A DNA stretch of 57,488 nt, filler included, from Platydemus manokwari (taxonomy: Eukaryota), in assembly GCA_037951405.1 (NCBI GenBank). It is 4 parts of 4 records of this genome, joined end to end, with 100 filler letters (N's around TTAATTAATTAA, not from the genome) between each part and the next. Parts side by side here need not be neighbours in the genome. Positions count along the whole stretch, not along the records: positions 38,569 to 48,451 come from JBBMOY011192877.1; 3 more parts are not named here. One strand, written 5' to 3'. How positions within the stretch are numbered: position 1 is the first letter of the stretch; each line of letters begins with the position of its first letter. Position numbers and translations under genes: made by a program. The notes beneath the pieces were generated by a model. It saw nothing but the letters and a program-made list of their open reading frames with translations, did no database searches and had not been told where the DNA came from. Below, piece after piece: positions 3,001-48,451 of the stretch.

Positions 3001-3006
3001 TTCTTC

Positions 3007-3051
<45 letters not shown>
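3007..3051. repeat. (TAA)n microsatellite
   Basis: Pure trinucleotide run. It explains the poly-Ile and poly-Tyr spurious ORFs at 2851-3153. Confidence 0.9.
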
Positions 3052-7000: not shown

Positions 7001-8071
7001 TTGATACAATGAACCAGATCATTGATCGCTTGATCTGGATCATTATTATTGACAGATGGCACGATATAATCGAGATTACAATTGACACAATGATGTAATG
7101 GGCATTGTTTTATATCAGCACCATTCGACCACGACAACATATCCACATGAGCACTCAAGCATGACCGATGATACGGTCGCATGCATTGATGATTCTGATA
7201 GGAAATATATTATCAATTATAATGCAAGGCTCATATCTCAACAATATTCCTTACATCGCACACAAATAATTGAGCCACACTGATTGATTGATCACAAATA
7301 TTGCATATCCAAACACTCTTGTTGCAACTACAGATCAAATCTAAATCCAAACAATGCTTATATTTCGTGGACAATATTTCAAACATGTTTACCATTTTCA
7401 TCTCTTACACATGCTTCATGATATTTCCAAATGCAATAATTGGCACATTTCTTCTCTTTGCCATCAATATTATCAATGAATATTTTTGATAAATATCTTT
7501 CTACATGTCGACATTAAACAAATTCACCAATAAGAATATCATTAATACTTCGATCTTCGCCATTCATTTCTAATAAACTCTTGTTTAAAGAACTAGAATC
7601 AAATTCAATCATTTTATTCAAGCAGATTTCACAAGGTTGCAAATTAGTTTTATCAATTTGGTCATTATTTGTGATCATTTTATCTACATCCATGTTGTCA
7701 CCATTTTTTGTCTTTTCGCAATAACTTAAATTTGTCTTTTGAAGTTTATCATAAGATTTCCAAGCTTTATTGTATACATCAACCATTGCTGGTGGAACAT
7801 AATTTAAATATTTGGAGTTTGGACTATTTATTTGTAGTTGACTCAAATAAATTTCCATATCGTGTTTAGAAGTACAATTTATCACATTACCAACTTCGAT
7901 CCATGTTTCAGTGTTAATTTCGAGTAATTTAACAAATACTTGCCGATTGTTTTCGAGCTCATTATAATATTTATTAGTTTTAGAATCTCTTATAATTATT
8001 CCTGGCCACCATGGATTGGTACCCAATTTTCCAATAACCAATTCTTTTTCTGAATATTGATGATTTATCAT
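4081..8071 (-). CDS. NSD: NSD/MES-4-family chromatin protein (PWWP, PHD cluster, AWS, degenerate SET, PHD), ~849 aa, probably catalytically inactive
   Basis: Hand-spliced GT-AG exons with consistent phases: 8071-7549 (alternative donor 7528), 7500-7393, 7340-7255, 7194-7001, 6940-6766, 5943-5780, 5714-5443, 5378-5224, 5060-4833, 4780-4582, 4526-4081 (TAA). Motifs: PWWP KLGTNPWWPG; NSD-type PHD signatures CPLHHCVNC...LVHCIKCKLSFH...CLPA...ICYRH and NVSRFCFAC; AWS CAC..CC...CPN.....EC....C....CRNRRLQKR; SET-like ELVG / ID..YCNLARFI / TRIGLFS; terminal PHD CPIC...HCLSCFTVLHLHC...FVCPSC. Additional upstream exons cannot be excluded. Confidence 0.85.
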
Positions 8072-8479
8072 GGAGATAGACAATTAAAATTGGTATTAAA
8101 AGTTATGTAATTCTAAATTAATTGTAAAATTAAAATATTATTTTGAATTCACTCATTATTCAAACAACAATATTTTTAAATGGAAAAAATAAATGAAAAA
8201 TATTTTAAAAGAACTTCGAAAAAATAACTTTCGCTTGGTTTGAACATTACTGAAAAATAAGTTTATAATTACTTCATTGTTACTTACTGTTTCCTAATGT
8301 TTGATTGTAAATAATTAAAAAATATGCTTAAGTGTTCTAGAAAATATTTTTCTGAATTTCATTCATCGTATTCACATGATTTGTGTAGATGATAAATATG
8401 TTTTATCTTGTGAATAAAATAAAACGGCATCAAGAAAACTTAACACGTGAAATTTATTTATAAGTGAATTTATTCATCA

Positions 8480-10250
8480 AATTACCAATTAATAAAGTAT
8501 CTCATATATTATGATGCACTTTTTAATCAAAAATCCCAGGAATATTAGTGCTTGATTATCACAATTTTTGGAATAAATTATGACATCATTTACATAAATC
8601 ATTGAGAGATGTAAGTCCATGAACATGGGTTTCATTTCTCCAAATGGCATTACTACGTGGATATTAGTGTGTCATCCATTTGCCAGATTAAGTCTAACTT
8701 TTGAAAATTAATTACGCCATCCTTTCTTTGTTCACTATTTCATCAATTAATGGTTATGAAAAGATGTCTTCTTACTTATTCTTTTACCTTCCTGTAACTT
8801 ATGCACATCCGTATACTTACTTCTCTCTTTTTCACAATTACTATGAGCTATCTTCATAATGAGAAAGTCGGTTTATTTCATTCTTATTGTAATGATTCAT
8901 CTTTTTTTGCTGGATTTTGGCTTCTATTTTTACAGACATGTTGCTATACTAGTTCTTTCAATGAATTATTTATTTATTTAGAATACTTATCCTTTTCCAC
9001 GTAGTGATTTGTCTATGCAAAATATATTGTCTTCATTATGGGTGGAGTTATGAGATCATTTTCCATATATGTAAACGGCAACTTCTATTGCAATTTTTGA
9101 CATTTTCACAAATTGCCTTCTGCGCGTTTGTATACAACATTCTTTAATTGTGATATTACATTTTTTATTAAGCACTCTTAAGATCAGAGATCCGATAATC
9201 CTCCAATAACAAATATACTATGTTCTACTAAATGTATTTTGCAATTCATTATTTCTCTAAACTGTAATATGTCTCCTCCTACTTCACGAATTTTAATTCC
9301 TGCTCGTCAGATTAGCTGTCAGATTTCTTTAATATTCAATGTTCTTGAATGCATAATCATGGTATTAGCTCCCGTGTCAATTAATCTCATTAACTGATGC
9401 TTATTTAATCTTATCCTGACCTGTTTGACTCATCTTACAATTGTATTCCGTGAATTATAATTGCTTTTGCCTATGTAAAGTACTGTCCCTTTTAGTCGAG
9501 TTTATCTGTTAATCATGTTCTTGAGCTAGTTGTGTGATTTCATTGAACAGATAAGAGTCATTGCTTAACCATGATTGTTTCTCACTTGATCCGCTGGCCT
9601 TTAATAAAGATAAAAGATCACTTAAAAATGAGATTAAGTTGGTCTTTTAGCCTAATGTTTTTTTTATATCCTGATTTGTTTGTTATGACACACTTTTAAC
9701 TTTACGGTTATAAATTTATAGAGCATATAAGAATTGTATCCTATAACGACTGTGTTTGTACAATATAGAATTCCCTACGACAATGAAAAATTCATATGTG
9801 AATTCACTCAAGCATCCAAATAACGTGTAAATATGATACGTCATCATTTCCTGATATATTTCTGATTTAATTATGATTATTATGAGGTATATTCCTGCTC
9901 ATACTGCCATAAATGTTACTAAATCTGTGAATATTCTTCATATTTGCTGTACTACGTTATTTGCAATATTGTAAAATGTTTTGCTGCGAAAATTTATCAT
10001 AATTTCATCCTAGATTTCCGTTTGTACGAATGGTTCCAATGATTTCTGATAATTCTGTACCCCTTAGTTGTGGGAATACCAGTGTTTTGCGTGCCTCTTC
10101 CATGTCCATTAGTGTGTAAATTACTCTTTTCTCAATATTTTCTATTGAATGAGACTAAATATGTCTATATAATATTCAGAAATCTCAAGATTATTTCCCT
10201 TCTCTGAGTGGTCATCTATTTCTAATCGATACCCATTGTTCATCTATTTT
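8480..10250 (-). mobile_element. Highly decayed Ty3/gypsy gag-pol remnant (protease and N-terminal RT)
   Basis: Minus-strand translation gives protease QVRIRLNKHQLMRLIDTGANTMIMH (~9430-9350) and RT fragments IRMCISYRKV, PLIDEIVN, VVMPFG, MIYVNDVIIYS. These parallel the element at 41048-42755 and contain many stops and indels. The gag boundary is approximate. Confidence 0.7.
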
Positions 10251-10256
10251 GTATAA

Positions 10257-10960
10257 TGTATTAAAAGAGCGGATTAATTAATAATAAACTATATGAAACA
10301 TTCTAACAATTTTTATAACAATCATATTTTTTATGCACGACAATACGTATGGCATGTGCATTCATCTTTATTGTATTAATTTTTATTTAACCTGTGTGTG
10401 TTATTAACGTCTTAACAACTCTCAGAGCATTTGAGTGAAATTAGCTTAACATATTATAATATATTAGTATTTATAATAATTATTATCTATAAATATCTAA
10501 AATAATATTACCTGTAAATCTCCATTGAAGAAAAAACCATTAAAATCCATAAATAATAAATTAATTCATGAAATAACAATACACAATATATTATCGCGCA
10601 ATTACATCGACAAATAAATCACCACTAATTATCGCGCACATAAATTCTGTCAGTGAATAAGATATTCACTCCATTAAATTTAATCAGAGAGAATATTCCT
10701 CTGTTTAATAAATTTAATCGAAGGAATTTTCTCTCTCCGATAAATAAATTCCATCGATAAAATCATAAATACTCTGGCATTAGATTCAATCGCACAGAAT
10801 ATCTAAGAGTTATCCACCACTGCTTATAAAAAGCAGCAGCCACAATTAACACTGCCACAATTTCACAATTTCACTTTACTGAAGACACAGTTATTTCGAT
10901 TGTCATATACGGAAGAAGACATAATTTTACATTCAGTCAAGACCATGTTCTCATTCGTTG
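10257..10960 (+). mobile_element. LTR-like repeat (probable solo or partial LTR), homologous to 25500-26627 on the opposite strand
   Basis: Collinear shared blocks with the reverse complement of 26040-26560, e.g. tgcacgaca.tacgtat, ttgtattaatttttatttaa, taataaattta, atcgataaaat, ggcatta.att.aatcgca. TATA-like tataaaaagcagcag at ~10826. Ends are approximate. Confidence 0.65.
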
Positions 10961-11571
10961 ACTATAAATAGGCTATATCTAAAAATTTAATTGTTTCAAG
11001 GGATTAGGATGTTGATTTTTAAGATAAATTCTGGATAGGTAAATAATGGCTGATACCAAACATCGAAGACTGCAAGCTTTATTTCTATTATATGTTCTAA
11101 TCAATAAAACTCTACGATTCAATATAACGTATAAAAACGCAACCAAAACTTGGCTTCCAACTGATAGTTGGCCACCTTTACATCGGTATTTATACTGGAG
11201 GTCTGTGTTAAATTTTATATCACTATATATTACGTTTCCCATGTTTCTATTGGACTTGTTGATTTTTGTATGTGAGGGACCGGTCAATCCCTATTTTTGT
11301 TGCTGTGTGACTAAGTCCCTTTTTCAAATTATAGTTTTCCATGTAAGTCGCATATGATTGGTTGATTGCCATTCTTGTATGATTGTGTAGGCAAGCAAAT
11401 GTGTAAAGTGTTAAAACAAGAGCTCCAAGATGCGAATCCGTTTTTCTTTTACAAGATTTCTACTCTACTCAACATAAATAACACAACTGGAATTAAAATC
11501 AGCCTCAAGATTCTAAAAATTAAAGGATAATCGCTAAACTAAAAGTCAGGCCTATTAAAATTTCGCCACGA

Positions 11572-11746
11572 AATTTTAGCTTGGTGATGAATGAAGTACG
11601 AGGTGATCGCGGAACGAGAAGATTAGACCACAGAAAAGCACACAGTGAACATGCTCATGCCTGTGAAAACTGACTACGACTTGCAAAATTTGGCCATGGA
11701 AACCAGAATTTCAGACTTTGATTTTCAAAAGAGAAATTTTTGTTTT
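11572..11746 (+). repeat. Dispersed repeat, second copy inverted at 33782-33955; possibly a DNA-transposon (hAT-like) remnant
   Basis: Shared cacagtgaacat..tcatgcctgtgaaaac.gactacgac and aaccagaatttc..actttgatttt.aaaagagaaatttt. The copy at 33.9 kb reads SLVIDEKRD, weakly like the hAT FSxxxDESTD motif. Confidence 0.6.
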
Positions 11747-14128
11747 AAAATAAATCTTTGCGTCTTCAACTTGAATTTGTTGTATCGAAACAATATCAAA
11801 CAGCAAGTAAATATGTCTTCTTCGTCTTGGTAAGTCAAGCTGTGCTCAACAAAATCTATAAGATATAAAAACATTTCACTCTTTTTCTTCCTTCAACTTA
11901 AAATGGCTCATTGACTAGCCTTGTTAATTCTTTTTAAATCATTTCCTTAGCACACTCCAATGACGTGACTCTTGATTTGGCCTCAATGTTAATACTCATT
12001 AGCAGTTACAATTTTGTCGATAATGACCGATTATTAGCAATTTTAATTGTAAACGACTATTTTTAACTTTAAATATTGAAAAAGAATTAATTTATGAAAA
12101 TATTTTTAATCATTTCTAAATCGTGTTTATTTTTGTTCTCCTGGTTTAACTATTTTCTTGTGATTTTATTGATTTTGTTCGCATTTTATTATTTATGATT
12201 TAACAAAAATCTATTTTATGTTTATCTAATATTACATTGACTAGCCTGGCTTACACTTGACATTCTCGATCAATATATATTTCAACAAATATCTTTATTC
12301 TTCACAATTATTACATTAACTGCTAATTCTTCTTCAATCAATATTTTCTTATAAATCAATATATTCTTCTCAAATCAACTCTTCTCTCCAGCTCATAATT
12401 TACTCTTAAAATGATATTTTCATCAATAATTTCATCGCTTCATTCAACTTATTCTATTCAGATGTTACATTTCAATCAATAAATCCCTTTTGATTTTAAC
12501 AACATTTAGCTCGGAAATTTCTATTTTTCACCAAATCTGTTTTCTGTTGATATTAATCTCTCTTCTTTTCTCTCTCTCTCTCTTATTCCCATTGTCTCTG
12601 AGTTTTTATATCAGATTTGTACCGAATTTGTATCAGATTTATTATTTCAATGCTGTCGAATTATTTGATTCTTCTGATTGGTTATAAATAAAATGAAAAT
12701 CATTTATTTTAATCCGGTTATTCACTTTGCTTGTATTGATTATTCCGTGCGAATTATATTTTGCTAATCCGCTAATCATTTGAGCGATTTTAAATCTATT
12801 TTCATCTGCTGCATTAGTTTTTTATCCATTCTATTATAAATAACACACACATTTATATACATTATATATAATTATATTATTTCTAATTATAATAGAGACA
12901 TTATATGATAATATTATTTAATATTCTTTCATCAAGTCGATATTATTATTTGGGGCCATTTATCTTGTATTATAAAATCACATTGGATAACGAATTCAAT
13001 ATAAAATGCAACTTTCGATCCAGATATAAATGTTTCCAAATCAAAAATAGGATCAATATCGAATTGTTAATCATCAAACATCAAACGAATCACTTCTATG
13101 CACACTGATGCTGTTGAATGCTCACAGAACTAAATTCGTATAGAGTTCTTAATTAATCGAATTTGGACTTGAATTACCTGTGTTATCAGGCAAGTCCCCA
13201 TCTAGAAATGATGGAGAAACAACTATTATGCGAACTAGTCCAGTCAAGAAAATCTGAAACAGCTTCGCTGCTATCCCAAAACTTTTATCTTGGTTAAAAC
13301 TGCTTTACGTAAGAATTTATGCTGATCTTCTGTACACACGTAATGCATGGCCATACCTACCGTACATATTTTCCCCAAAATGGTTTAAAATAATCCATTT
13401 TAACGAAATTCTATTTATTTCATAAATAATAGGCAGCATTGTTAGGCATTTACTTTATTATATTTTTGTCATCTCTTTGCAAGCTTTTAGCAATGCCCTC
13501 AATCTCGCAAGTCCATAATTCGGTGCGCGATAATTGGTATGAGAGAATTGCGAATTTATTATATTAGACACCTTTAGAATCAATCAATATTTCATTTTAC
13601 GTTGGATTTTTATTCAGCACACACTCAGCAAGTTCTCAGAAATTTAATATTTTTCAGCGAAAAAATTGCGATATTAAAAAGTTCCAACAAACCCCCCCCC
13701 ATTAACCCCCCCCCATTTAAACACATCAGAAAGAGATAAATTATTTATAATCGCAGATATAAATAACTGGAATTTATAAATATAAAAATGCTTTGTTTCG
13801 ATTTTGCTTTAGCCATTTAAAACCACCGAATAAAGCTGAAAGAATTTAACAAAATCTTCTGTAAATATCGAGCGCGTTGAATGAATAAGTGTAATAAAAA
13901 TAAAACAAGAACCATAGCAACCGTCATTTCTACAACATAAAGCCATACATATTGAACCAGCTGTTACGCTTTATTAATCAGATTCTGATAAACTGCTCTG
14001 AGCAATCAATAATTCTAAATAAATTCGTTTTTCCTCAAAATAAAATCGATATTAATAAATGATTTTTAAATTTTCCCAGATTCATGAAAAAGAGAAAATT
14101 TTTGAAAAATAAATTGTTTTCAAAAGCT

Positions 14129-14347
14129 CGATAATAACGTCACGGGAAATAACTCCTTCGATAATAACGTCACGGGAAATAACTCCTTCGATAATAACGT
14201 CTCGGGAAATAACTCCTTCGATAATAACGTCTCGGGAAATAACTCCTTCGATAATAACGTCACGGGAAATAACTCATTCGATAATAACGTCACGGGAAAT
14301 AACTCCTTCGATAATAACGTCTCGGGAAATAACTCCTTCGATAATAA
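14129..14347. repeat. 30-bp minisatellite, 7 copies plus a partial
   Basis: Unit ataataacgtc(a/t)cgggaaataactccttcg starting at 14131, 14161 ... 14311. No spacers. Confidence 0.97.
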
Positions 14348-17300
14348 ACGCCCTCGAATCAAGATAAATGAGGAAATATAATTATTAAAAACACCAAATA
14401 ATCAATTGATGAATTAATTAATAAATCTATAATTCTAGTTTTCATCAATATAATCAATTTTGTTCCAATAAAGTACCAAAAGCAATTAATTAATTCGAGA
14501 AATAAATCACAATTGCAAAAAATTTTTAATTATAAAACATTATGGAATCTCCTTGACAACCAGATCAGTTCTCGTGGCAACACACAAAAATCGTATTAAA
14601 TAATCTAATTGGTATGGCATTATAAAATTGAGCTAATCACAATTTAATTATCCAAATATAAATATGCACACGAAAGAAAGACCAATTATTATAAAAAATT
14701 GATAGAAATTTCATTAACAGCATATTTAGTTACCTCGGCTCAAGCACCTACAGACATTTTAAACATCGAACCCCCTTTACAATTTAATTTAATCCATCCT
14801 TGCATCGTTCGAGCTCGTAGAGCAGTTAATTAATTGGGTATTTCTATCAAATATCAAATTAGCATTTTCTCATAAATTTGATTCCATGCAAAAGTGAATT
14901 TCTTTTCTTGATATTCACGGGTAAAATTTCTCGTGAGGGGAACACCTTTTCGTAATCGTTACTGAAGTGTTTCACGCGAGAAAAACATTCACCGGGTATT
15001 GACCTAGCCAGGCAGCACTTAATTCCAGTCGAGTATTTTGTCAGAACTGGTTTGAAAATCTAAAATTTTACACAATTATTGATGTCATTTATGATTGGTT
15101 CAATAAATTGTCGTCATTGACAACACAACCTGGTCAACATTTAAGAGTCAAATATTTGTCGAATCAAACTCAACGAATAATTAGTGATAAATTTATCTAA
15201 TCATTCATTGGTGTAAATATCGATAATCGATTATTGATAAAAGTTTGAATTTCAATTCCATGAGCACAACATACGATCCCACAAATAATAATAATAATAA
15301 TAATTCATTGGTGGAGTCAGTATTGCGAATGAATTTGTGAGTATCAACATCCATGGACGAATTATAAATAATGTGACCCATTAACGTATCGAATGGAATC
15401 CATAATGAATATGTTTATAAATAATTGTTTTACTGCTATTATGAGGCTGTGTTAAAAATATTTATAAAACTAAAATTGTAAAAAATTAATCTATTTCGAT
15501 ACACTTCCTTAAATCCCATCAACTATTATTTGTATCTCACAGCTTCTCGTAACGGATATCGATATTTTGAAAATCAGTGCTCAACTCAATGAAGAACATG
15601 TGTTTTACGTGAATCAGATTTAGTTATAATTTATAAAAATATTAAACAGATATTTGTGATTTCTTTTAAAAAGCTTTTTGCTAAAGTGATATTATTAATA
15701 TATAATGATAATGTAATAATAATATTATTAATTATAATTTTAACATTAAATAATTATCATTGTAACCATAAATTATTATTACGAGATAATGACAAGATAA
15801 TTATAAAATGTCACAAATATTTTGTCATCAACATCTGTGAGTTTGTACTCGATTATGTGAGATGAAATGACTGTTCATTGGGTGGCTCCATGGTGTCTAT
15901 TAAAACAAATACAAAGAACGCAATAAAAGTAGTGGCAAGTTGTGATTTACACACAGAGAAGCCAGCATGTTATTTCTTATCGCCTCTTTTGTAAAAAACA
16001 TATTTTTTGTAACCCACTAAACGACTGTTAGGATTCATATAAGAAAAGTTTATGAGTCGTGTTGAGAAGTATCGAACGTGACCATAAAGATATTGTCATT
16101 AGTTATATAAATAAAATAATCAAGTTCGTAATTAGGATCATCAATAACTAGGATCCGAAATGAGAAAAAAGAGCAAATTGATTAATGAACGATAAATTTC
16201 GAATGATTAAAGCGACATTGCTGTTTGCAACCAAAAATGCACATAAAAGGAAGCATTTTCGCTATAATAAATCGCTCCATTCTGCAGCAGACATTTCTCC
16301 ACGAAATGCATTGTTTTGATTTCATTTCTCTTTGTTTTTTATGACATCTATGAGGTGCGTTCCGGACAGGTTAATTTGTTTTTTCTCCACCGTTTCATTG
16401 GTTTATTTAAAGATCTTTAAGCCATAATAACAACTGATAAATGAGAAACAAATTAATTGCGTATCGAAACAGATCCGATGCTGCCATATTCCATAGCAAC
16501 CAGATATCTCAAATTATACAGCTACCAAATGATTCCTTTAATTATGTTGCTATCAACTTTTCTCAACTGTAATTACTTTTCAGACTGGCATGTTCAAATG
16601 TGAATCTCGTTTTTACAACAGATTTTTATGAAAGAATTAATTTATCGAATGAAAATGAATATTCAAGTATTTCATTTCCGATGGAATCCACCATATCTTC
16701 TAAATCCTGAGAATATTTTCATCAATATTTATTTATTCATTTTCAATCCACACACACACACACCCACCCATCTCATTAAATAACTTGATTGTTGAAAAGC
16801 GAAATTAAAAATATTAAAATAAATATTCCGGTTAAACATATTATAACAAAATTATCTGTGGAAACTTCTTTGCCACACAATTTCTCCCAGAACAAATATA
16901 AACCCTTGTTGTTGTTTATATTTTATTTATTATTATTGATATTTTATTTTTATCAAACCACCTGATTTCTAGATTTGATTGATGATTTCATGTCTGCTTG
17001 CAAGCCAAATTCGACATTGACAGTTCAGTGTGATGAACTAGTTATTCTGTGTTCTGGAATAATAAATGTTTCGAGGATAATATTGATGACGCAATGTATG
17101 ACAAAATGAATAATAATGTGGCCCGATTATTGGATCATTGATCAGTTGTTTGTTATGATCCTCACTATTCGATAAAAACTGTCCACACAAGCACATATAA
17201 TGATGCCATTAATAACGCCAACGTGAAAATTAATTGATATAAATTAGTTTTCCCGGCTATCGTCGAAAGATGAAAACATTTTCCATGAAAATAAGGAATA

Positions 17301-18288
17301 ATTATTACAAAAAATTTAAGAGAAAACATACTCTAATCAGGTGTTGCCAATCATTCTGTGCCAACACAGACACAATTTGTTGTGAATGCATGCATGCTGG
17401 CACAGACACACAGATGCCAGCACACACGTACACTTGATCTTATTGGACACTGGCATGTGCATCTTGATATGACACTTACGTCACTGTTGCCATTATTGAT
17501 GGCGGCTGTCTGTGAATATTGGAATGCTATTTTCTCAGTTTGTTTTCACGGACACCACGAATTATTATAATTGGAGATTGGATTTCTATTTTCATTATTC
17601 TCTAATGAATTTCTTCGCGTTTTTTCTAATTCTTCTGGTGGTCGGTAAGATTTATTTAAATACATTATAATGAATATTTTTTTATGTTATTATTGTCGGA
17701 GATGGATATGATAATGATCAAGTGGTTATCATTGACATCAAGCAGAACCATAGATTTTCAATTTTATCATCTATGTGTTAACCATCAGTGACCGATAGTC
17801 TTGTAATAAAATGTTATTTTAAATTTATTGCTGTTTTTTGGCGGGTGTTCAGATTTATGGCCGTCATAGCGCTTTCATGGTTGATAGATTAAAATAATTG
17901 ATTTGTTACCATAGCAATTGTATTGAATAACACATTTCAGACCCGTTACAGAAATATCACTATAATAATTTTTCGATTCTCAATTTCGGATTCGTTCCTT
18001 CACAACACACCGATGGCATGTGATCAAAGCGCGGTGTAATCGCCCTATTATTGCAACTCTAATTGATTTGATAATATGATGTAAATTGCTGTTCTGAAAT
18101 TATGCTTTTGATTGCGTCATCAAGAGAATATCACGTCACAATTCCATGAATAATATTTAAGAGATTCTCCTTATAGATTGACATTAAATACTCTAAATGA
18201 CTCCCAGAATTCATCAGATTTGTCATATTAATTTCTCAAACAGAATATTTCTTTCATAATTCATCTCTAACTCCATTTTTATTAACAG

Positions 18289-18677
18289 AAACCAAAACAA
18301 ATGTCATAAATAACTGCCCGGAAAATTATCATTGGGATGTTGAACTGGCCATGTGTAAGCAATGCGATCCAAATATGGTGTACATCACAGAATTACGGAA
18401 ATGTCTGCATTTATCTGATGCTCAAAAGAGCTGCAAGAAAGGCTTTAAATTTGACGAATTAGAAAGAAAATGCTTGGGTAAAATGGAGAAGAGAGATCAC
18501 TTGTGATGAGATATTGATGAATATTGATTGTTTCAGATATTGATGAGTGTAATCAGGTGATATATCCATGTCAGAAAAATGAATACTGCAGAAATCTTCC
18601 AGGAAAATTCATATGTATTGTGAAACATTATTGTGGACAAGGATATGAGTTTGATACCGTCACTGAGACCTGCAAGG
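18289..18677 (+). CDS. Two internal exons of a fibulin-like calcium-binding EGF-repeat protein (partial gene)
   Basis: Symmetric phase-1 exons 18289-18477 and 18537-18677 with AG/GT borders. They encode ...SCKKGFKFDELERKCL-DIDECNQVIYPCQKNEYCRNLPGKFICIVKHYCGQGYEFDTVTETCK, matching the cbEGF consensus DIDEC...CxNxxGxFxC. Other exons were not identified. Confidence 0.8.
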
Positions 18678-19163
18678 GTAACTAATAGCTATTATGTGAT
18701 ATTGTATTTTCAATTCTTAAATTTTTCTCTACTGATTTTCTCTTTAAGAGATTTAATTGATTTATTCCTGACAACCTCTATTGTCATGACAATTTCTAGA
18801 CAAGTATTACCATTTATTGATTTATAATAGAAAAATCAATAATCAATAATTCATCAATTATTCTCATTCTAAAATGTCTTGTAGAATTCTATAAATTATT
18901 TAAGATTCGTGGCAACAAAATAGAGAAATTATAATTTATATTCAACTCAAATAAAGGGTTGTCTACTCCCTATTCAGGTTGTCAGATCGGCATGGTAACA
19001 GGAGAAATTAATCTCTCCAATTCAATAAATGTTACAGATGTCAGAGATTTGTAGAAAATATATCATTTATTTATTTTTATAAACAATAGTTTCTGTACTT
19101 ATTGATGTGTTGACAACAGATATAAGACATCAATATTTCATTTGATATCGATTAGTGTTTATA

Positions 19164-28795: not shown

Positions 28796-29376
28796 TTATA
28801 CTCTGGATTTACGTCTGTACCGCCGTTCTATTTGAATGTATTGCTGATTCTGATTGGGATCATCATAATTTGGTCCATTATCATTTTGGATATCATAACC
28901 ATACTGGGACATGTAAGGAGATGAGAGTGAATTGTAATTGTTAGCCTGTTTGAGAATCGGTTGATCACTGCCATAACCGTATCCGTATTCTGTAATTTCT
29001 TTAGGCATATCTTCGATTTTCGGAGCACACCAATTTGGATTGACATCTTCGGGAATATCAGCCCATGGCTGTTTCTCTCCGGAAGCGAATATCGCATAGA
29101 ATATCACACCAACAATGTGAATCAAACTGGCTATTAGAAATACGTACGACCAAGATTCTCGAGTCTTAAAACAAACATAATAATTTTAATTATTATTATT
29201 ATCACAATCGAATTTTATCATATTTTGCAACACAACTGTTATTGTAATCTACAATGAAGCTTCATTTATCATGAAATATATTTATATATAAACACATATG
29301 ATACAAGAATTGATACGAATAAAGAGGAAACAGAAAACGGAAATTGTAATTATTTATGAGGTGGAAACTCATAAAA

Positions 29377-32400: not shown

Positions 32401-35400
32401 CGACAGGCACATACCTACAGATGGCCACAAACTCAAACATCTACCAATGGCATAAGACATGCAAGGAAATTCATGAGCAGACCTGTTTGCGAGCAAATTC
32501 AGCAAATAACAAATGAAGCTTCAGGACATTAAACGGAAATTATCAAACGGGCACATCAATAGATCTATAAAAGAGGTTATGTTCCATGAGTAACTGCCAG
32601 TCTCATTTGGTCGGTTATCTATGTTCTATGCTTGAATTTTACGTGATTTTCAGCAGCCAGTCTTTTTGATTGTTTTCTATTCTCTGATTGACTTTCAGGT
32701 GCTGATCCCGCTTTGTATGATAATCCATTATTGACTTGTGATAAGATTTTCATTGTATCTGTTCATAACCGAGCTTGTGATATAATTTTCAGGTTTTATT
32801 TCAAATGGTTACCTAACATGTATAAAGGGAAAATCAGTTTTAAAATGATTGTGATAAAGAAATACATTATTTGAAACTTTGAGAATAAATTTCTTTGAAT
32901 AATCTGTGTGTTGGAAATATATTCTACAAAGACTAGCTTATGACTAATTTAAATAATTTGTATACCATAGATAAAATAGATGCGTCTATCATTATTATCA
33001 TTATCATTATTATTACCAAAATAATGATAATGTTGTGGTTGATATCATGATTATTGTTTCTTAGAATAATAAGAAATATTAAATAGAAATATTTCTGTTA
33101 TTATAAATTACCATTTTGAAAAATATTTCAAAAACAAAATTGATAAAAGCCTCCGAATTTCAAAAATCATGAAATTAGTAAAGAGTTTATTAATGCCATG
33201 GTGATCGTCAGATTAAATTACACATCGCAATCACATGAGAAAACCGTAGTAAATTTAATTCTTATAAAAATAAATATTGAATATTTTTTACATTTAATAT
33301 AAACTAAACATATATAAATGCGATTATTTTGTTTAAATTAATCAACTTCAATGTATATAAATAAATAAATGAAATACAAACCTGAGCGAGATTATTATGC
33401 AATAGATCATGAAGATATTTAGACTTTTGATGATTAGCAAATAGAACGACCAGCTCCGAGCGAAATTTGCAACGATTATCGCATAGACTGGCATGGATGT
33501 GAAAATCTTTCTCCATGGTATTGGTAGTTTCTGAAAATAGATTTAGCTTTATATTAAATATATTAATTATTTATATTTTATTTAAAATCTTTTTTTTATT
33601 TATTTTCCAAACCCTTTGTTATTTTTTGATAAATAAGCTTTCGATAGATTTACAATTTATAATATGCGAGGATTTTCAAGCAAATGAAAATTAAGAACGA
33701 TAATAAAACTTTATATTAAAAATATTAATTTTATAAAATTTGTTTATTTTAACTTTAATATTTTTGTAAGAAGATGTAAAACATAAAAATTTCTCTTTTT
33801 AAAATCAAAGTGCGAAATTCTGGTTTTTTGTAGTCTAACTTTTGTACGTCGTAGTCGGTTTTCACAGGCATGAAAATGTTCACTGTGTTCTTTTCTTTAA
33901 TTCAGTCTTCTCGTACCGCTATCATCCCGTTTTTCATCAATTACAAGGCTTAAATCTAAAACACAGAATATAGTCATGTAACAATAATAAAACTCAATCG
34001 ATGAGCAGTCGACGTCTACATTATATCCTAAAACAATAAGCCTTTTTGCTAAAATTGCAAGTACTGCATTATGCTTAGAGGTCGCCCTATAAGGGTTACC
34101 AATGCAATTGTTGAGTACGTGGGCCATCTTTTCCACTGCAGTACCGCATTACACGGAAAGGCCGGAAATTCAGTGGTAAGAGATTATTTCTACCCAAGTC
34201 CAGGAAGTGCCAAACCTGTGGTGAGAACTCAATTGAGTCCAAAACTCCCATTGAAACCATAAATAGCGCAACAGTTTTGACTAACATACCCTGGCGCTTT
34301 TTTTCAGTCCAAGAAACCAAACCCATCATGAAGAATAGAACACAATTTATCCTTCGCTTTGTTGCCTATCATATATTGTGAATCCCTACAGATAACCTTA
34401 ACAAATATATTTCCTTCAAGCAAGACGAACTTAAAATCTATTCCTCTTTTCCGCAGAGCCCGGACTCCCAACCGAACCTTCGACCACCAAGAGCACGGTC
34501 CAGCATGTTCATCATCAATTGTGTTATTTAGCCAGTCAAGAGCCCTATGGAATTCGTCAACTTTAATTCGATTGAAGCACTTGTTCACTACTGAGATTAA
34601 TCTCTTTTTGATAAAAGAAGCAAAGACAGAGTCAGAGCTGTTCAACAACCGAAAACCTCAAAAATATTAATTTTATAAAAATATTTTAACTTAACTTTAA
34701 TGTTTTGTAATTTTTGAATTAGTTTTCAATACATGGATAATAAAATAGTATTCGGATATTAAATTAAAATGTAATCCGATAATGATTCCTTTTATCTGGA
34801 TATAATTTCTAGTGAAGGTCTAGTAAAGTATGGGGACCGTGGGTTCAAATACTTCTGTGAATAGAAGTATGGAATTTTCAATCCGATATCTAATCAGGTA
34901 CTGACGAGTAGAAACAGCTATGAGACCTGATTCTTTTTGTGGATTATCGAATAGAATTGGAATTCATGATGATGATCAGGGAAATGCATATAGACAACTA
35001 CAGTGAATAATATCATTAACTGATATATTTATCCTCCACCGATAATTTATTGGAATTTATCTCAATATTTCCAAAACCTTGGATTCAGTCGTACAAAAAT
35101 TAAAGACACAACATATATACAAACCAATGACATATTGTTTCTTTTTCTAACAGTCGTAGAATGATAATTATTATTCGATTCTAACTGCCGTATTCTGTGA
35201 AATATCATTGGCAGATAATTTGAATATAGTGGGTTTGGAAATTTAATTAATTTTTCAGTACACCAGTGTAATCGAATCTCGAGTCAGTAATCATATCGAG
35301 AAAAACACAGACAAAGAGGAATAAATTTTCACTGAACTAATTTCAACGGATGGAATCGTTGGATTGAATAAAACAGTATGGCTTGCTGTCAACTGCTTAT

Positions 35401-38568: not shown

Positions 38569-38922
38569 AATTACTTGCTAACTTTATTTTTAGATGCTAA
38601 TGATATAAAGAAAAGATTTGAAAGTTCATGAACATTCTATTAATGTATAATATAACAGATTTTGTTACAAGATTTCACTTATAAATATTTTATTGTGATC
38701 ATACAAAAGTTCATTTAGTTATTTCCGTTACATTAATTCACATGAACAATACAAAAATCTGGTTTATTTCAAATTATAAACAAGGTCAAAATAAAAACCT
38801 AAAATAATTATTTAAAGCTAGACAAAGCATATAATTGAATGTTTTTTTATTTTGAATAAATTTATGTTCTAAATTTGCATTATTGAGATTGTCACGCCTC
38901 AACCGACGTTGACGGCAATCGT

Positions 38923-39133
38923 ATAAAGTGCCAAAAATGTGGAAAAGATAACCACAAAACGGCCGAATGCAAGGCCACGAATTTACAATGTGAAAAATGC
39001 GGGAAATTAGGACATCTGGCAATCATCTGCCGAACGTCTCAATATTCTCCAGTAAAACGATATGACGTAAACCTAAGCGGCAAAATTAAATGTTTTGATG
39101 CGGGCAATTCGGCCACATAAGCTGTGTATGTCC
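38923..39133 (+). pseudogene. gag: gag nucleocapsid with three CCHC zinc knuckles
   Basis: CQKCGKDNHKTAEC, CEKCGKLGHLAIIC and, after a 1-nt deletion, CFxCGQFGHISCVC. Confidence 0.85.
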
Positions 39134-40419
39134 CTGCAATCCAGCCAACCAAGTTAACCATGAACAGGGTCACAAACCCTCCGACCAAGCAGTTGTAGCA
39201 CATGGGCAAGCGGTCTATGATGGATGGACCCGCCTACAACAATTAGAGCACGAATATACCGAAGAAAGAAATCGCGTTGAACGTCTACGAGCACTCAACG
39301 AACGATATTTAATGACAATATGAACTCCGGTCAGCAACGACAGAGATAATAAGGCCACAGCATGGCCAATCACTAAACGAATGTGCCTCGACGCACCCAT
39401 AGCAGGAAACTTTTGTATTTAAGGTATCAGATACGGTTGGTTTACCTCGTCACACTATGCCCATCCGGCAGGCAAACACGACGGTCAAAAGCACCGATCT
39501 GCTTTGCCAACATTCTAATAATATATATGAACCAAGGTCCACAGGCCTTTACACCTGTCACCAAGGTAGCACACATGACGCAAACAATAGGGATATTATA
39601 CATGAACCGAAGTTCGCAGGCCTTTACATCTGTAACCAAGGTCGCCCATTGATATACAATGAATTACAAGAGACGAGCCCATCTAACGCAACTATTGGAT
39701 GTGTAGCTGAACTCACGGGCCCGACGCTCAACATTACTGAACGGACAGTAGATATAAGCCCACCCAATGCGAGGCTACACACATTGGCACGACGCCGACA
39801 ACTAAAATTGAATCCATGAGTGATTCTGACTTAAAAAAAAACCGTACTCAACCAAGAGAACGCGATAGTTACAATTGAGATGTTCAAAGCCGACAAAAAG
39901 AGATTGACACAGTTTCCTACGAATTACAGAAACCGATGACGAAAAGATGAAGAGCCTTTTATGCTCTCACATTTATGTAACGATACCTACGGACACATTA
40001 GCCAGAGTAGTACCTTTACTTACTCCATTATTGGAACGAACGACTATTTATCGGAGCAAGGTACAGCTTCTACTCCAGAGATACGGTCTCGCACTACGCA
40101 GTAGTTTACTCGGACAGCCTCCAGTGACTATAAACATCCGGATTGTAGACAATGGCAGCTGGATAAAACATTAGTCAGTTTATACGAAAATAAAGAAAGT
40201 TAGACAAGACTTTAAGACAGAGAAAGTCATTACAGACCCATTCGCGCTCACTATTTGGGAAAATCCCGTCGACGACGATAAATATTTGGTAGATGTCGGA
40301 CGTCTACCAGGACATGCAATGGTTATGAAGGTCATATCAGTACCTATCCAATCCAATCAATACGGTCATAATCAAGCCACCCTAACTGACGGTTTAGGAG
40401 GGCTGAATGGAGGATTTCT

Positions 40420-41010
40420 TAACACCCTCATTAAACTCATTTTAATCTGTAATCTTTTGGGAAAGACGTCTATGCTAACCGCATATGACTGTGCTAAACC
40501 CAAACTCTACGATATTTTCGCTAGTGGATTTAATGGAATGGCCTGCCTTACGATTACACAAAGTACAACGAGAACCATCGGAATTTTACTACATTTATCA
40601 AAAAATAGAATTTTATCGCACACCAGTCAATGAGTGCCGAGTCACAAAATTCGTTTTCTAATACTATTGTGGAGCGTTCAGCCGAGCCTCTGTACTTGAC
40701 ACCAAACTGATATCCAGGAGAATCAACATCTCACCTGAAGCGTGTGATGATGCTTTTGTACACGGGAAACTCAGAGTCGATAGTGAACTAACTCTCACAG
40801 CCAAAATAGGAAAAACTTTAGCAGAAATCGTTAGCTGATAGAGCATGTATTGGTCGAGGAAAAACCAGATAAGGGGAACACATATCTCATGTGGTCGAAA
40901 TCGAAGACTTTACAGTGGAGTTACGACAATATGAAGGAACATACGACATACACACTGGAAAAATGACGCAATACCCCACTTGTAGCTCAATGCACAATAG
41001 CTGTAAAGTG
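40420..41010 (+). pseudogene. env: N-terminal fragment of a chuvirus/herpes gB-like (class III) viral glycoprotein, env-like
   Basis: Hydrophobic signal-like TLIKLILICNLLG, then AYDCAKP / NSTIFSLVDLMEWP...YIYQKIEFYRTPVNECRVTKFVF*YYCGAFS...ISPEACDDAFVHGKL... / VVEIEDFTVELRQYEG...CSSMHNSC. The spacing matches the recalled chuviral G pattern GYDC..SLLDVGEC..LLQ...QCKI...YHCGMHS..ISREAC. Confidence 0.7.
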
Positions 41011-41047
41011 AATTGAGCAGTTTTAGCATTACACCGAACGACATTAT

Positions 41048-44000
41048 ATGATTAACGACGAAAATGCATCTCAGAAATTAATTCAAATACGAGTCAATCG
41101 ACATATTGCTTTAGCACTAGTGGACACTGGCGCTGATTCCACTATAATACATCCGAGTATTCTTAATATATATGAACTACAAGGAATCGAAGAAACTAAC
41201 ATAGCAATCACAGGCATCAACGGAAGCGTCATACCACTAATGGGAACATTAAATTCTAAACTTCATTTATGTGGTCAAACAGTACCAGTTTCTGTTAGAG
41301 TTTCTAAACTCTGTCCATATGACTGCGTAATCGGAAAAGATGTATTACGACAATTGAAAGGAATTATGTACGAATGTACCACAGGAGCACTCTTGAAAAT
41401 AACTCTCGATAAACGAAACAAAAAGGGATAAGTCTACCTGGTAAAGGAAGAAATTATTCCATCACGCATGGAAGTCGTATGCTTGCACAAGCAAATACTG
41501 CAGACGATATTGAAGTTTTATTCGAACTAAATACCGCATTCATGGAACAAACAGCATGCCACTCAGTGTATGCATTGCAATAGTTAAAAACGGACCCATC
41601 GCTAATATAACAAAGGAACCATGGAAAATATATGCGGATATCAGATTAGGACAATTATCTGAGTATGTTCTCGAGTCTCAAGAAAAGACTTCTACAAAAT
41701 TATACGGACCATTACAAGCACAAATAGCGGGCATTCTCCCGCAACAATGCCAGCAATTGACACAAATTTTGAGTAAATATGCCAAAGCCTTTGCCAAGCA
41801 TGAACATGATTTGGGCAAATGCAATCTCATACAACATCGAATCGAGTTAAATGATCATCAGCTTATTTGCCAACGCGCATATCGTACACATATAGCAATG
41901 GAATCCGAAATACAAAGACAGATAAATGAATTACTCGATCAAGAAAGAATCAGGCCTAATAATTCACCATGGAAATCCGCAATAGTCATAGTCAAGAAAA
42001 AGGAAGGTACGATGCGAATGTGCATAGATTACCAATAGGTCAATGAACAGATCAGAAAAGATAATTACCCATTACCACTCATTGATGAGATGGTGAATCG
42101 AGTAAGAGGAGCAAATTTATTTTCTACACTGGACCTCCAGACAGGGTATAACAATATTGAAATGCATGAGGACTCCATACCAATTACAGCTTTCACTGAG
42201 GGAAAAGGGTTGTACGAATATACGGTCATGCCATTCGGACTCACCGGAGCCCCGGCAACTTTTCAACGTGCTATGAATCTTATGTTAATAGATGCACACC
42301 ACGCCATGGTGTACAATGATGATGTTATCGTTTTCTCCAATGGTTTTGATGAACATATTCGAGATATAGAAGAAGTGCTGAAGAAAGGTGTCACGACTTG
42401 TGTCAAATTGAAGCCTACAAAATGCAAATGGGCGAAAAAGGAAGTTAAATATTTAGGGCACATTATATCCGGACAAGGATTCAAACTGGTCAGAGCATAT
42501 ATTGCTAAAGACGTATTGTATCCCATGCCCAAAACGAGCAAACACATTCAAGAGTTTCTCAAATTAGTTAATTATTACAGAAAATTTATACGCAATTGTG
42601 AGGCCATACCTAGGCCATTAAACGAATTATTACAGAAAAACAAACCATTGCGATGGGAGCCTGAACAGGAACAAGCATTTGTAGCATTAAAGCAAAGCCT
42701 TATTGCAGAACCAATTCTCAGACAACAGGACATGGTAAACCCTTCATCATTATAACGGATGCAAGATGTTATGCCATCGGGGGAGTCCTAGGTCAAGTGG
42801 ACAACAATGGGAACGAATATGCCATAGCATATGTAAGCAGAGGCCTTAAGAGTCACGAAAAGAATTATACTGTTATTAAATTAGAGGCGTTAGCAATAGT
42901 CTACGCAGTAGAAAGGTTTCGAACCTTTATCTACGGTCACTAGATACATGTGTTAACTGATCATAGACCACTCCAATGGCTCTTACAACATCGCGATACA
43001 GCGTCTCGATTAATTAGATGGGCGCTTAAACTTCAACAATACAATATAAAAATTTGCTACAGAAGAGGCAAAACAAATGGGAACGCGGACGCACTATCCC
43101 GAGCAGACCCGGCTAATTATGAAATAGATAATGATAATGTTTTTACTGCCATCCATTCATTAGGACAGAATGCAGATATTAGTCGATTACAAAAAGAAGA
43201 TGAGGAAATAAAGAAATATTTGATGCACATAGACGATCTCCTACTGAGCTGTAGAAATTGCCAAGAGATTGATAACAAATTCCGAGTCCCTCGTGGACAA
43301 AACTTATTAAAAAATATAGAGATCAAATTCTACTTGAAGGATATATTTTGAAAATACAAGAGGCGGACAGGCACACTATTATCGTACTACAATCACTACA
43401 AGATACCTTGCTACTTCAGTATCATGACGGCACCTTAGGGGGCACTTATCTGCAAGGAAAACGCATTTTCGACTAAAACAGAAATACTTCTGGAGAAATA
43501 TGAAAGTAGATGTTAAGAATTGGTGAGCATCTTGTAAAGTCTGCCAAACCCGGAGAAATACGGGACAAAAAAGTAAAGATCCACTAACGCCAATGTCAAT
43601 GCCAAGTTCACCAATGGAAACCGTAGCAATGGATTTAATCGGTCGATTGTCCCTATCGAAAAATGGTAACAAATACATTTTGGTCTTCTGCGACTACCTC
43701 ACCAGATGGCCAGAAGCTTATGCAATTCCGGATTTAACGGGTAACACAGTAGCCCGAATATTTATCGAAGAAATAGTATATCGTTATGGTGCTCCAAAGA
43801 AATTGCTCACAGACAGAGGTACAGAATCCCTTATAGTACATTGGATGAAATCAATCGTATCTTTAAAATAACAAAGCTTAATACTTCACGATACCACCCT
43901 CAAACCGATGGGTTGATACTCTCACTAATATGTTATCATCATATACGAGCACAAGCCAAACAGATTGTGATGTTCACATTTCATCTTGTCTATTCGCATA

Positions 44001-44430
44001 TCGAACCTTTGAACAATCCAGTACCAACTATACTCCATTTTATTTAATGTATTTAAGCCATAGTCATATGCCTGTTAACATCACAATTGACTCACAGTTG
44101 TCACAATATATGGATGAGGAAGACTATGTAATCGCCATGAAGAAACGATTAGCCATCGCATGGCATAAGGCAAACCTAAACGTCGTTATAGACAAGAAAA
44201 AATTAAATACACATACAATAAAAATAAAAAGGATCACACTCTCCCAATAGGTAATAAAGTCATGCTTGAAAGCAAAGCATGCAAGCAGTCTCGATCAAAT
44301 TAAGTCGGCCTGTCAAGGGCCCTTACATTATCGAGCGAGCTACTGACAAACTTTGTAATCAGGCCAGTTGCAAAACATTTACAGAGCCAATATGGGTGCA
44401 TGTAAATCGTTGCAAACGCTACGAAGAGAT
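41048..44430 (+). pseudogene. pol: gypsy pol: aspartic protease, RT, RNase H, integrase (stops and frameshifts)
   Basis: PR ALVDTGAD (41048-41431). RT SPWKSAIVIVKKK..MRMCIDY, LDLQTGY, MPFGLTGAPATFQR, YNDD, YLGH. RH TDA..., ELEALA-like, TDHRPLQWL, NADALSR. IN HDGTLGGH...CKVCQ, AMDLIG, DYLTRW, TDRG, YHPQTDG. C-terminal GPY and VHVNRCKRY. Confidence 0.95.
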
Positions 44431-44599
44431 TACATTACAATCGCGTAACCACAGCAATATACATCGATGAACCCGGCAAGCATGCAATCAGCAAACTTTT
44501 TCCTTATACTCGAAGTGCTCACATAAAAGAGAGAACGGCTTACATCGCAGGTGTGCAAGAACCCTTACGGTTAGACAAAAACACTAAATATTCAACAAT

Positions 44600-45842
44600 G
44601 CGACGCACGCTTATACCATGGGCATTTTAAATGTCCACCGGTACCCACAACTTTAGTAATGGAAATGGGTTACGATGATATTTTCAATATCATCTGTACA
44701 CCCCACGAAGAAAATGATTACAGAGCTACCCTTGCTGATATCAGCAAATATTTATCCTTTACAAGAGCCACTATGGGACTCGAAGAGATCAGAAAAAGAC
44801 TTTTAATTATTGCAATTCGTACTGTAGCGAGAGCACCATACCTACAATCTTCCGTAGTCGCTATCACAATCCTAAATAACCAAGGAACAGTGATCACCAA
44901 CTCTAGAGTAACCCGAGAAATTATGTAAGACACTGGCGAAACGAAGGCAATGATCGAGTTTCAGAAGCAGACATCATCCACCAATGGGATGAAATGTCTT
45001 GCATCAAACAAGTTAACCAGCTAGTAGATAAACATATTTTAGTCAGTTATAAAGTAGCAGATATGTTGGACACATTAAAAATCACATCACTGCGTCTTCT
45101 AGGTATTAGAGACCTTGCAAGAGCAAAGTGTTTGGAGAATTAAGGCTTAATACAAGCCAGTCAGCTAAAATTCTCAAAAATCCTTCGAAAAGTAATCCCA
45201 TATTACACACTTTGAAAATTGCATGAACATAAAACGACACAGACGGCCGAGGAAATTCGAGCCATTTACCTACAAATCGAAGATCAATGGAGAGATCACT
45301 TTCCGCCTAAAGAAACAATAACAAATCAGAACACATATAAATCATTACCAACAAACACGGAAATTGCCCCAAAATTAGTATAAACATATAAAGAGCCCAG
45401 AGCACCATCCATGGAGGTGGAACAAATTCATTCTGTTGACACACAGTCACAAGTCACTGCCAGTGAAATTGTGGACGACCCAATCGATTGCGAAATCGAT
45501 GAAGAGGCCACTACAGCGGCCATGGTACAGATGGCAAAGAGACCATCCACATCAACACAACGAACCACTAAATTTCTTAACGTCGACATCAACGCAGAAG
45601 AGCCACCTAAACGCATAAGGAAGGGCAAACCCTATTTGCCAAAACATATGTACAAAGCAATTACAGATGAGCACAAACGTTGGCGCATGACAGCTATTCA
45701 ATACACATGCGAGGGGACCTTCGAAACTATGAGCTTACAATTTCGAAATCGACATCTTGAAATTAGGAAACCCAAGAAACCCGAACGAATGGACGATGAC
45801 GGCGATGACGAACCGAAACTTATGATCGACCTCGAGGAATGA
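44600..45842 (+). pseudogene. Broken accessory ORF of unknown function downstream of integrase
   Basis: Sense-strand ORF pieces 44659-44928 and 45411-45842 with coding-like sequence between them. It lies inside the element, before the PPT. Confidence 0.55.
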
Positions 45843-46167
45843 GGCTCAACCTGTTCAACATGCTATCTGACAATTGACACCGACATCAAATCGTGTGACA
45901 TTCCATAACGTTTTATTTGTGACAGTCCTATTAATTTATCTATATCCCATTGTGTGACATTTTATGACAATTCTATCAATTTGTGTAATGTTTATAATAT
46001 TATATTCTGACATTTTATTATTACATTGGTGTAACATTTTATTGAAATCGTTGACTATGTATCCTCTATCATTTTTATGAACGAATATTGTGTTGATTTT
46101 GTATTAGACCCTCAGTATCTTGTCTGCATCTTACACTAATAGCTTATTTTCGAGGACGAAAATCTTT

Positions 46168-46180
46168 AAGGAGGGGGAGA
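46168..46180 (+). other. Polypurine tract of the gypsy element
   Basis: aaggagggggaga, 3 nt before TGTGGA and preceded by the ttttcgaggacgaaaa hairpin. Confidence 0.85.
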
Positions 46181-46183
46181 TAA

Positions 46184-47815
46184 TGTGGAATCCGACCCTA
46201 TCCGAGAAATTAAAATACAACATATATACATAATTACATATAAGAATAAAAAGAAGTTGAAAAATATAAAAAATTTAAATTTAAAAAATTTTACTTATGA
46301 CTGAAAAAATAAAACAAATAAAATTAAAAATTTTTGCAAAAAATTATATTGGTTTTCTTATGCAAGTGTTAGTAGATTATTGATGTTTAGGTGGTTTGGT
46401 TGCTCTTTATTTCTTACTAATGTGCTCGCTGATTCCAATCGGACTCCAAACGATTGGTTAGGTTCGATAGAGGTAGTTTATAATGTAAATGGTAATATAA
46501 TAATAAATAACAATAACACACTGAAATAAGATATAATTATGAATCAAAATAATACAACGAGGAATGAATACAATTAGTTAATATTTATGTTAAGAAAGAA
46601 CTTGCGAATCGTGGCTTGCTTAACCAGTGGGCAAGATTCACGAAACTTATTAAAAAGAATTAAAACCTATTAAAAAGATGGGAGAAAAACGAAGAGATAT
46701 TCAGTTGATACCGAATCTATCGACACAGTATGAAATTTACTCAATAAATCGCTTTATACCTTGCTGCTTAGTCAGTTGGCTTGTGACGGAGAGTTTATGT
46801 GCTTGTTTTGTCTCTAACGAAAAGTTTCTCTCTGCCTCTAATTTTCTGTTAGATCGCTGCTTAAAGCTGATAAATGTCAGTTAGCTGTTTGTCTAGTAAA
46901 ATTTTTGGCGAATTGTTTTGTTTGTCCTGCTGCTTTTATACTAATTTTCGTTATATCTGTGCCCAATCATAAATTTTCTATTTTTGGAATTCTAAAATCC
47001 TATTTTTATTTTCTGATCTATTTTTGGAATTAATAAATTCTATTCTTAGATTCTAATCTATTTTTGTAATTATTAAATTCTATTTATAGGATTTGATTTA
47101 TTTTTGGAATTTAATTATATTATTATATTTGTGGGCGTAATATGTGCTTATATGACTCATTGTGGGTGGATTCGGATCCTAAAATTTATTTTAAAAATAA
47201 ATAAAACAAAAATTTTGTTTATCTACAACAAATTCTTTTGTTTAAAACGAACTCAAGGTTAAAGCAAGAAAATAATCTCAAAAATCTATTTTTAGCAACC
47301 ACGTCATAGTCAATTTAGCAACTTAAGAAGCTAAAAACAGTAGGCTGTTGCTAAACTTGGGCATGACGTCTAGAGAGTTTCTAAATATAGAAACAAGAGA
47401 GAACAAAAAATAAACACACAGGTATGGCGCATTCGACCTACAAAATCAGTATATAAGAGCAAACAAATTCATTTTAATTGCACTTTATCATGCTCGCACT
47501 TGATTATACGCATTTACGACACGAAGCAATTCTGTTATTATTCAATTAAAGAAGCAATTATACGAAGAAATCATATTATTTATTCAATCCAAAGAGACGT
47601 TCACTATAGTTATAAATATTGAAGCAATATTTATCTACGGACATTACCTATTGAACGAAGCATCCCGTTTATTATTTAGAAGCAACATTTCACTTTATAT
47701 CAATGATGAGTAAATTTTTGTATTTTTATTACGCGCCCACAGCTATCGAGATAGCTGTGTGGTTGTTTTAAACTCATTTAAGTTCAAGTTTATATCTCCC
47801 TCCTTTTTATCCACA
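46184..47815 (+). repeat. Candidate 3' LTR, possibly interrupted by an antisense LTR
   Basis: Starts TGTGGA just after the PPT, with the complementary TCCACA at 47810-47815. TATA gtatataagagc at ~47450. There is no 5' LTR in the window to confirm the end. Confidence 0.55.
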
Positions 47816-48451
47816 GGGGTGTCTTGCCCATTAGTAAGGCACACCTGATTGAATAAAGACTTTAAATAAGCCAACATAGTTGAATTTTACATGATAACTG
47901 GGTTTTGTAAAACATTCATAATCGTTAAATCATTAAACAAGCTTTACAATCCCAATGAAATTTGTTTTTCTATTACTTTTTATCTTTGTGTGGAGAATTT
48001 CACAAACTCCATTATATATTTACATTATTTGTCGCATTAGATATGGTTTTTGTAAGCGATAGTGGTATTATTTAAATTATACTTAAATAAATCGAGTAGA
48101 GTATTTTTAATAAACAACTGCTTAAACAAATTTACTATATATTGAAAATAATATTCTTAGATATTCTTAAATTATATGAGCTGTATAATTTTAAATTTTA
48201 TAAATAACTTCAAAATATTTTATATATTTATTACTTTTAAATTATTCAATTTTTAAGATTTCAAAATCTCTCATTTTAAAAATTAATACTTAACATTCTT
48301 GTGATTTTGATTGGTTAATATTTGATTACCACCAAACAAAAGTTTTTATAAACAATTGAGAATTTTAAATCATACTTTTTTTTTAATAAAATGGCACTTC
48401 CATAGTCTTATTATAAACACGATTTTCTTACAAATCCCAAGTAATAACGAT

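Follow-up and report, generated by a model that had tools for sequence, protein, structure and literature searches.

The 57,488-nucleotide stretch of Platydemus manokwari DNA analysed here (the window) contains what is, with high probability, a decayed Ty3/gypsy retrotransposon, likely a Burro-like planarian one, in which a gB-type envelope gene (env) separates gag from pol; the order was likely inherited, with most of env lost afterwards by internal deletion. The domains seen are, in order, gag knuckles, a SUMO-like domain (X), the env N-terminus, protease, reverse transcriptase (RT), RNase H, integrase, a polypurine tract and an LTR-like repeat. The env fragment is real, was correctly identified in a sequence-only reading of this DNA, and stands in an order already described for the host group. 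That reading had also offered, as one of two options, an undescribed element with gag-X-env-pol-ORF order, an option overtaken by two published accounts of env between gag and pol (PMC6431247; PMC13524379).

The degenerate LTR element lies on the plus strand at about 38885–45900 and forms a GC-richer island (0.37–0.44 versus about 0.28 in the surrounding DNA). It begins abruptly with a gag nucleocapsid remnant at 38887–39146 (PF00098, E 3e-6, and motifs), in which three CCHC knuckles are found, the third past a frame change. Upstream of this remnant no capsid, primer-binding site or 5′ LTR was seen, and contig depth at the gag start is 173 inside the element versus 21 upstream. Two copies of a 56-nt direct repeat, 82% alike and 75 nt apart, lie between the knuckles and X (39518–39648). 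On the far side of env, and on the same strand, comes an aspartic protease at 41027–41431 (PF00077, E 5.3e-9; LVDTGAD at 41117), followed by a broken RT and RNase H at 41556–43300 (PF00078, E 1.7e-27; PF17917, E 2.4e-7) and an integrase spread over several frames at 43312–44416 (PF00665, E 1.9e-7, and tblastn). The RT active-site motif is YNDD, at 42312; it is YIDD in 11 of 11 relatives. No Pfam match was obtained for 41514–42035, between protease and RT, where Burro has a dUTPase-like domain. With pol ordered protease-RT-RNase H-integrase and an RT of gypsy type (by Pfam on window pieces, and with gypsy polyproteins as its RT relatives), the element classes by sequence as a decayed Ty3/gypsy (Metaviridae) LTR retrotransposon.

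One or more broken reading frames follow the integrase (44575–45842, plus strand). They gave no real Pfam match and have no counterpart among the 265 proteins collected, and their first piece has no Atlas match; they end in an acidic and basic tail. A polypurine tract at 46168–46180 (plus strand) precedes a likely 3′ LTR of about 1.6 kb at 46184–47815 (plus strand), recognized from sequence and contig depth; we infer its TGTGGA...TCCACA ends from this LTR, there being no second one for comparison. Contig depth reaches 1,363–16,336 over 46160–48139, versus 74–414 inside the element; such depth gives no copy number, but it suggests that solo or related LTRs are very numerous. The surviving internal sequence amounts to about 7.3 kb, in a copy that is both 5′-truncated and internally deleted.

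Between these gag and protease matches, as the sequence-only reading had placed it, lies env. The region 40412–41043 encodes about 200 N-terminal residues of the protein, spread over three frames, and the motifs named in that reading are all found there on the plus strand: AYDC at 40481–40492 (frame a), FSLVDL at 40515–40532, YQK at 40596–40604, ECRV at 40632–40643, YYCGAFS at 40662–40682 and ISPEAC at 40728–40745 (all frame b), and C-x6-C at 40981–41004 (frame c). The frame shifts near 40510 and again near 40835, and there are stops at 40659, 40870 and 41014. The signal-like peptide of the reading corresponds to a hydrophobic stretch directly ahead of AYDC (40412–40480, plus strand), which may function as a signal; it shares its frame with X and AYDC, and the hydropathy threshold is passed at the corresponding place in 7 of 14 relatives. 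The remainder (40481–41043, plus strand) is a truncated N-terminal portion, roughly a third of the whole envelope protein, delimited by profile, tblastn and by-eye collinearity, with a match extending to about 41025–41043.

Profile searches argue for a viral fusion glycoprotein. Frame b matches PF24664 (Monjiviricetes_fusion) at E 3.8e-5 over profile positions 62–125 of 653, with 22.3 bits; a fragment would be expected to fall short, as this one does, of the 27-bit cut-off that the family has for whole proteins. In a search of 1827 window pieces, a profile built from nine natural env ectodomains scores three of them at 26.5–34.7 bits (E 6.5e-10 to 1.9e-7), compared to 4.4 bits for the best of 20 shuffles. 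The env match is not due to chance. A comparison of the env sequence profile with the PDB found nothing, the link to gB coming from the fold search alone. For this search the ectodomain of a natural relative, P0261, was modelled; mean pLDDT is 60, and values in the N-terminal half, the part that corresponds to the window fragment, are mostly 70–95. Among PDB entries the model matches herpes gB best (VIA Z 9.7, rmsd 6.2 Å, 242 aligned; Foldseek E 2e-9), and among viral proteins chuvirus-type G (E 1.7e-25). TM-scores are low (0.2–0.5) because the C-terminal half is poorly modelled, and the fold evidence comes from relatives' models rather than from the window's own pieces. With PF24664 matched on the fragment itself and the fold on P0261, the predicted protein is of class III, gB-like/chuvirus-type, in agreement with the sequence-only reading.

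The Pfam and fold matches to chuvirus-type G could also be taken to mean that a chuvirus glycoprotein gene was independently inserted into an ordinary gypsy element, as a non-retroviral endogenous viral element. We consider this scarcely credible and already largely refuted: the fragment matches retroelement envs (24–56% identity per piece), env shares its frame with the X domain ahead of it, just as it does in the relatives, and the known gene order fits.

A search with the RT gave P0005 as a close match (49%), and its cluster mate P0252 is a single ORF of 3735 aa with the order capsid, CCHC, X, env, protease, RT, RNase H and integrase. The P0252 env matches PF24664 at E 1e-91 and has membrane segments. 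Searching with this env region yielded 13 further polyproteins, and hence 14 relatives in all (P0252–P0265). All 14 are single-ORF polyproteins in which env comes ahead of the first protease; 11 reach RT and 11 have CCHC upstream. One caveat here is that this count is biased to fused forms, because the search was limited to proteins of 2054–6537 aa, a set in which elements with env in a separate ORF could not appear. The window env pieces are collinear with all 14 relatives (tblastn sum E 1e-11 to 6e-23). X and env are 70 aa apart in the window element, compared to 240–432 in 10 relatives. Another phmmer match, P0241, was rejected as a repeat protein without a tblastn match to the window. Most of the 14 polyproteins have two or three aspartic protease motifs, with one after the integrase in 7 of them; no mention of multiple proteases was found in the available parts of the literature on these elements. 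Ankyrin repeats occur in 2 of 13 relatives and a weak Bcl-2 match in 1 of 13, as in Burro.

The RT tree comprised 131 sequences, namely the window RT and 130 of 134 candidates (one duplicate and three RT-less proteins were dropped), with no named Burro or Schmidtea mediterranea (Smed) errantivirus sequence among them. The window RT falls inside a 14-tip clade with support 0.98 that contains all 11 env-pol RTs, at an identity to these relatives of only 48–51%. This placement indicates that pol and env belong to one lineage, and argues against a chimera of unrelated elements, in which gag-X-env of one element would have been joined to the pol of an envelope-less gypsy element. The junction is abrupt, with a frame change, and none of the 14 relatives has anything matching the 3′ ORF, as a chimera might predict; however, both sides of the env-protease junction are matched collinearly by the same proteins, and together with the RT clade this makes such a chimera very improbable. 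A join between two sister families of the env-before-pol clade is conceivable. The gag-env-pol order is thus likely inherited rather than chimeric.

The X domain (39908–40354, plus strand) is predicted to consist of three helices and a ubiquitin/SUMO-like β-grasp, interrupted in the window by a stop at 40172, and its region matches the relative P0242 by tblastn (37% over 133 aa, E 1.8e-22). An X-domain profile gives E 3.5e-12 and 6e-8 on the window, scores that are partly circular since the profile seeds were chosen by their match to the window; an independent check on non-seed proteins gave E 4e-27 for P0252 and 8e-28 for P0254. The domain is strong in 12 of the 14 polyproteins (10 of these 12 being profile seeds), weak in one and absent from one, which is cut at its 5′ end. 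Among aligned members, Pfam finds ubiquitin in 5 of 12 and Rad60-SLD in 4 of 12, and the 60 matches listed from a PDB search with the profile are ubiquitin-family proteins or their fusions. The model of P0242 (pLDDT 86.5) superposes on SUMO/ISG15 with Z 11.9 and rmsd 1.6–1.8 Å over 74–76 aa. Of the 12 proteins whose motif could be placed, none has a di-glycine after the domain, and X is therefore likely a binding module rather than a conjugated tag. A second, weaker copy of X is present in four of P0252–P0265. The idea that X is undescribed was dropped, as a SUMO-like domain is already reported for Burro (PMC6431247); in the portions of the PMC13524379 text and supplements at hand, a SUMO-like domain is not mentioned.

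The junction between env and protease lies, by comparison with the relatives, at 41025–41045 (plus strand). The env match stops at about 41025–41043, and the match upstream of the protease motif starts at about 41027 in a different frame. Just 38 codons lie between the last cysteine of env and the protease motif, versus 500–1016 residues in the 12 of 14 relatives in which this distance is measurable. Env is short of at least 460 codons, among them those for the membrane anchor and the remaining ectodomain. An internal deletion is the likely cause. The second option of the sequence-only reading was a deletion or recombination joining a gag-env element to the pol of another: a deletion at 41010–41050 agrees with the short env-protease gap, whereas a join to another element's pol is not supported by the RT phylogeny. 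We infer the deletion from the relatives because no contig joint or loose end is listed at the junction (none at 41010–41050 among 15 of 91 joints and 6 of 706 loose ends listed).

The contigs come from one sequencing run that contains the stretch and covers 30 of its 30 bins, with no RNA data set listed as containing it; this may be the source sample, so they do not constitute independent support. They show the family to be multi-copy, with 2752 contigs matched, 2394 of them less than 99% alike and 358 at 99% or more. Other copies have internal skips of their own (40506–40916, 40801–40946 and 39295–39850), indicating that such deletions are common in the family. A short-read assembler could nevertheless have merged copies of one repeat family, skipping the middle, and so have produced the junction as an artefact. 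The window has seven N gaps, the family is multi-copy and diverged, and none of the contigs listed is shown to span the junction; yet the element itself contains no N gap, and the skips in other copies offer real deletions as a ready precedent. We judge an artefact improbable, and the gene-order conclusion holds either way. Somewhat speculatively, the env-truncated form may be a subfamily that spread in the planarian after the anchor was lost, representing envelope loss in progress in a compact Burro-like lineage with a 3′ accessory ORF that has no known relative; we think this unlikely.

A second, older relic at 8564–10150 (minus strand) shows, from profiles, an env C-terminal ectodomain (E 1.1e-6), a membrane segment (E 7.3e-6), a protease (E 2.5e-5) and weak RT scraps (E 0.005–0.17), in that order. 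It holds the env parts missing from the main copy. No match between the two was found by blastn, and the relic therefore provides separate evidence for the env-before-pol order in this genome, the order being seen twice in one 57 kb window.

Elsewhere in the window, isolated gypsy scraps (RNase H and integrase C-terminus) lie at 27228–26936 and 23516–23139, both on the minus strand; the RNase H scrap has 69% DNA identity to the main element. Frame pieces at 33897–34657 (minus strand) resemble, by eye, the end of a non-LTR element with its RT and endonuclease, and the piece scanned from there gave no Pfam match. A tandem array of about 7–9 copies of a 30-nt unit occupies 14098–14377. Host genes are also represented. 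A vesicular glutamate transporter exon at 28799–29185 (minus strand) matches Schmidtea mediterranea Slc17a-1 with 85% identity across 95% of the query, versus 40–59% for flukes and tapeworms. On this one gene, the host is likely a triclad planarian, though not S. mediterranea itself. Cysteine-rich EGF-like exons are found at 18201–18685 (plus strand), and a PWWP/PHD gene at 7517–8083 with 4084–5060 (minus strand), which resembles an NSD-type methyltransferase.

The ancestor of the main copy would have made one long polyprotein. In the working we propose, the env ectodomain would enter the secretory pathway by way of an internal signal. Membrane segments at the C-terminus would hold env in the membrane and bring the chain back to the cytosol, where capsid, envelope and enzymes would be released by signal peptidase together with the element's protease or proteases. 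The class III fusogen could then let particles pass from cell to cell. None of this should apply to the present copy, which, relative to P0261, has six stops inside aligned pieces and many frame changes. Judged from its sequence, with the 5′ end missing, the anchor lost and the reading frames broken throughout, it is inactive and would be unable to make an anchored envelope or a whole Pol. The suggestion that the element points to a potentially infectious lineage may accordingly suit the lineage; it does not suit this copy.

The closest described systems are planarian. Burro/GYPSM1 elements (Arkhipova and Yushenova; PMC6431247) are giant gypsy elements of dugesiid planarians in which gag, env and pol form a single polyprotein, with env in frame between the other two, and decayed Burro fragments are reported in Dugesia japonica. 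Errantiviruses of Nematoda, Bryozoa and Platyhelminthes have only gB-type env and the GAG-ENV-POL order, the elements with this order do not form one clade, and the entry mechanism of gB-type elements is called unknown (PMC13524379). The same source gives six GAG-ENV-POL elements from Schmidtea mediterranea, Smed_errantivirus_1-6 (Chary and Hayashi), and its supplement 6 lists ENV-POL search regions with 16 pol and 5 env in Dugesia japonica and 59 and 20 in Girardia tigrina. The window element likewise has env between gag and pol, in a host that the single exon at 85% identity places in Platyhelminthes.

The Smed errantiviruses share with the window element the host group, the gB-type env and its position ahead of pol, and their ENV rows are collinear, by eye, with the window env pieces (PMC13524379). 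In a hand count against the Smed_errantivirus_4 ENV row, 35 of 83 and 25 of 57, that is 60 of 140, ungapped positions are alike; the six Smed ENVs are 27–64% identical among themselves. With about 43% env identity and a host other than S. mediterranea, the window element would be a family distinct from them. The Smed elements are intact and present in 1–215 copies, whereas the window copy is broken, 5′-truncated and missing most of env. Intact ORFs and a full ectodomain with anchor, by which PMC13524379 lists its elements, are lacking here, and the copy reads as a relic of a GAG-ENV-POL element rather than an intact member. More distant parallels are the nematode non-canonical ERVs (Sacco et al. 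2022, as cited in PMC13524379), with flipped env/pol order in a different phylum, and mosquito BEL/Pao elements (Dezordi et al., PMC7642597), in which an LTR element has likewise captured a chuvirus-like glycoprotein, in an insect host and in BEL/Pao as opposed to Ty3/gypsy.

With Burro the window element shares a gag with CCHC knuckles (2–3 in Burro) and a SUMO-like domain, which is Ubi2/SUMO-like (PF11976) in Burro and lies between gag and env here (PMC6431247). Burro env has been likened to gypsy Env and mononegavirus fusion proteins (PMC6431247), and by analogy is likely of the same type as PF24664. The Burro internal region reaches up to 25 kb, compared to about 7.3 kb surviving here with an LTR of about 1.6 kb, and Burro carries extra Smc, MATH, BCL-2, BIR and ankyrin domains (PMC6431247); Pfam found none of these in the window pieces scanned, and they could lie in the lost parts. 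The element is likely Burro-like; with neither the giant size nor the accessory domains seen in what survives of it, we do not file it as Burro proper. The likely link to Burro and the Smed elements draws on gene order, host and by-eye comparison, the named sequences being absent from our alignments and tree. As a discovery this amounts to little: a class already described gains a decayed family from a further planarian. The 14 polyproteins share the Burro-type core, with SUMO-like domain, gB-type env and pol in one ORF, and may serve as compact natural cases in which to study how a single polyprotein gives rise to both a membrane-crossing envelope and cytosolic enzymes.
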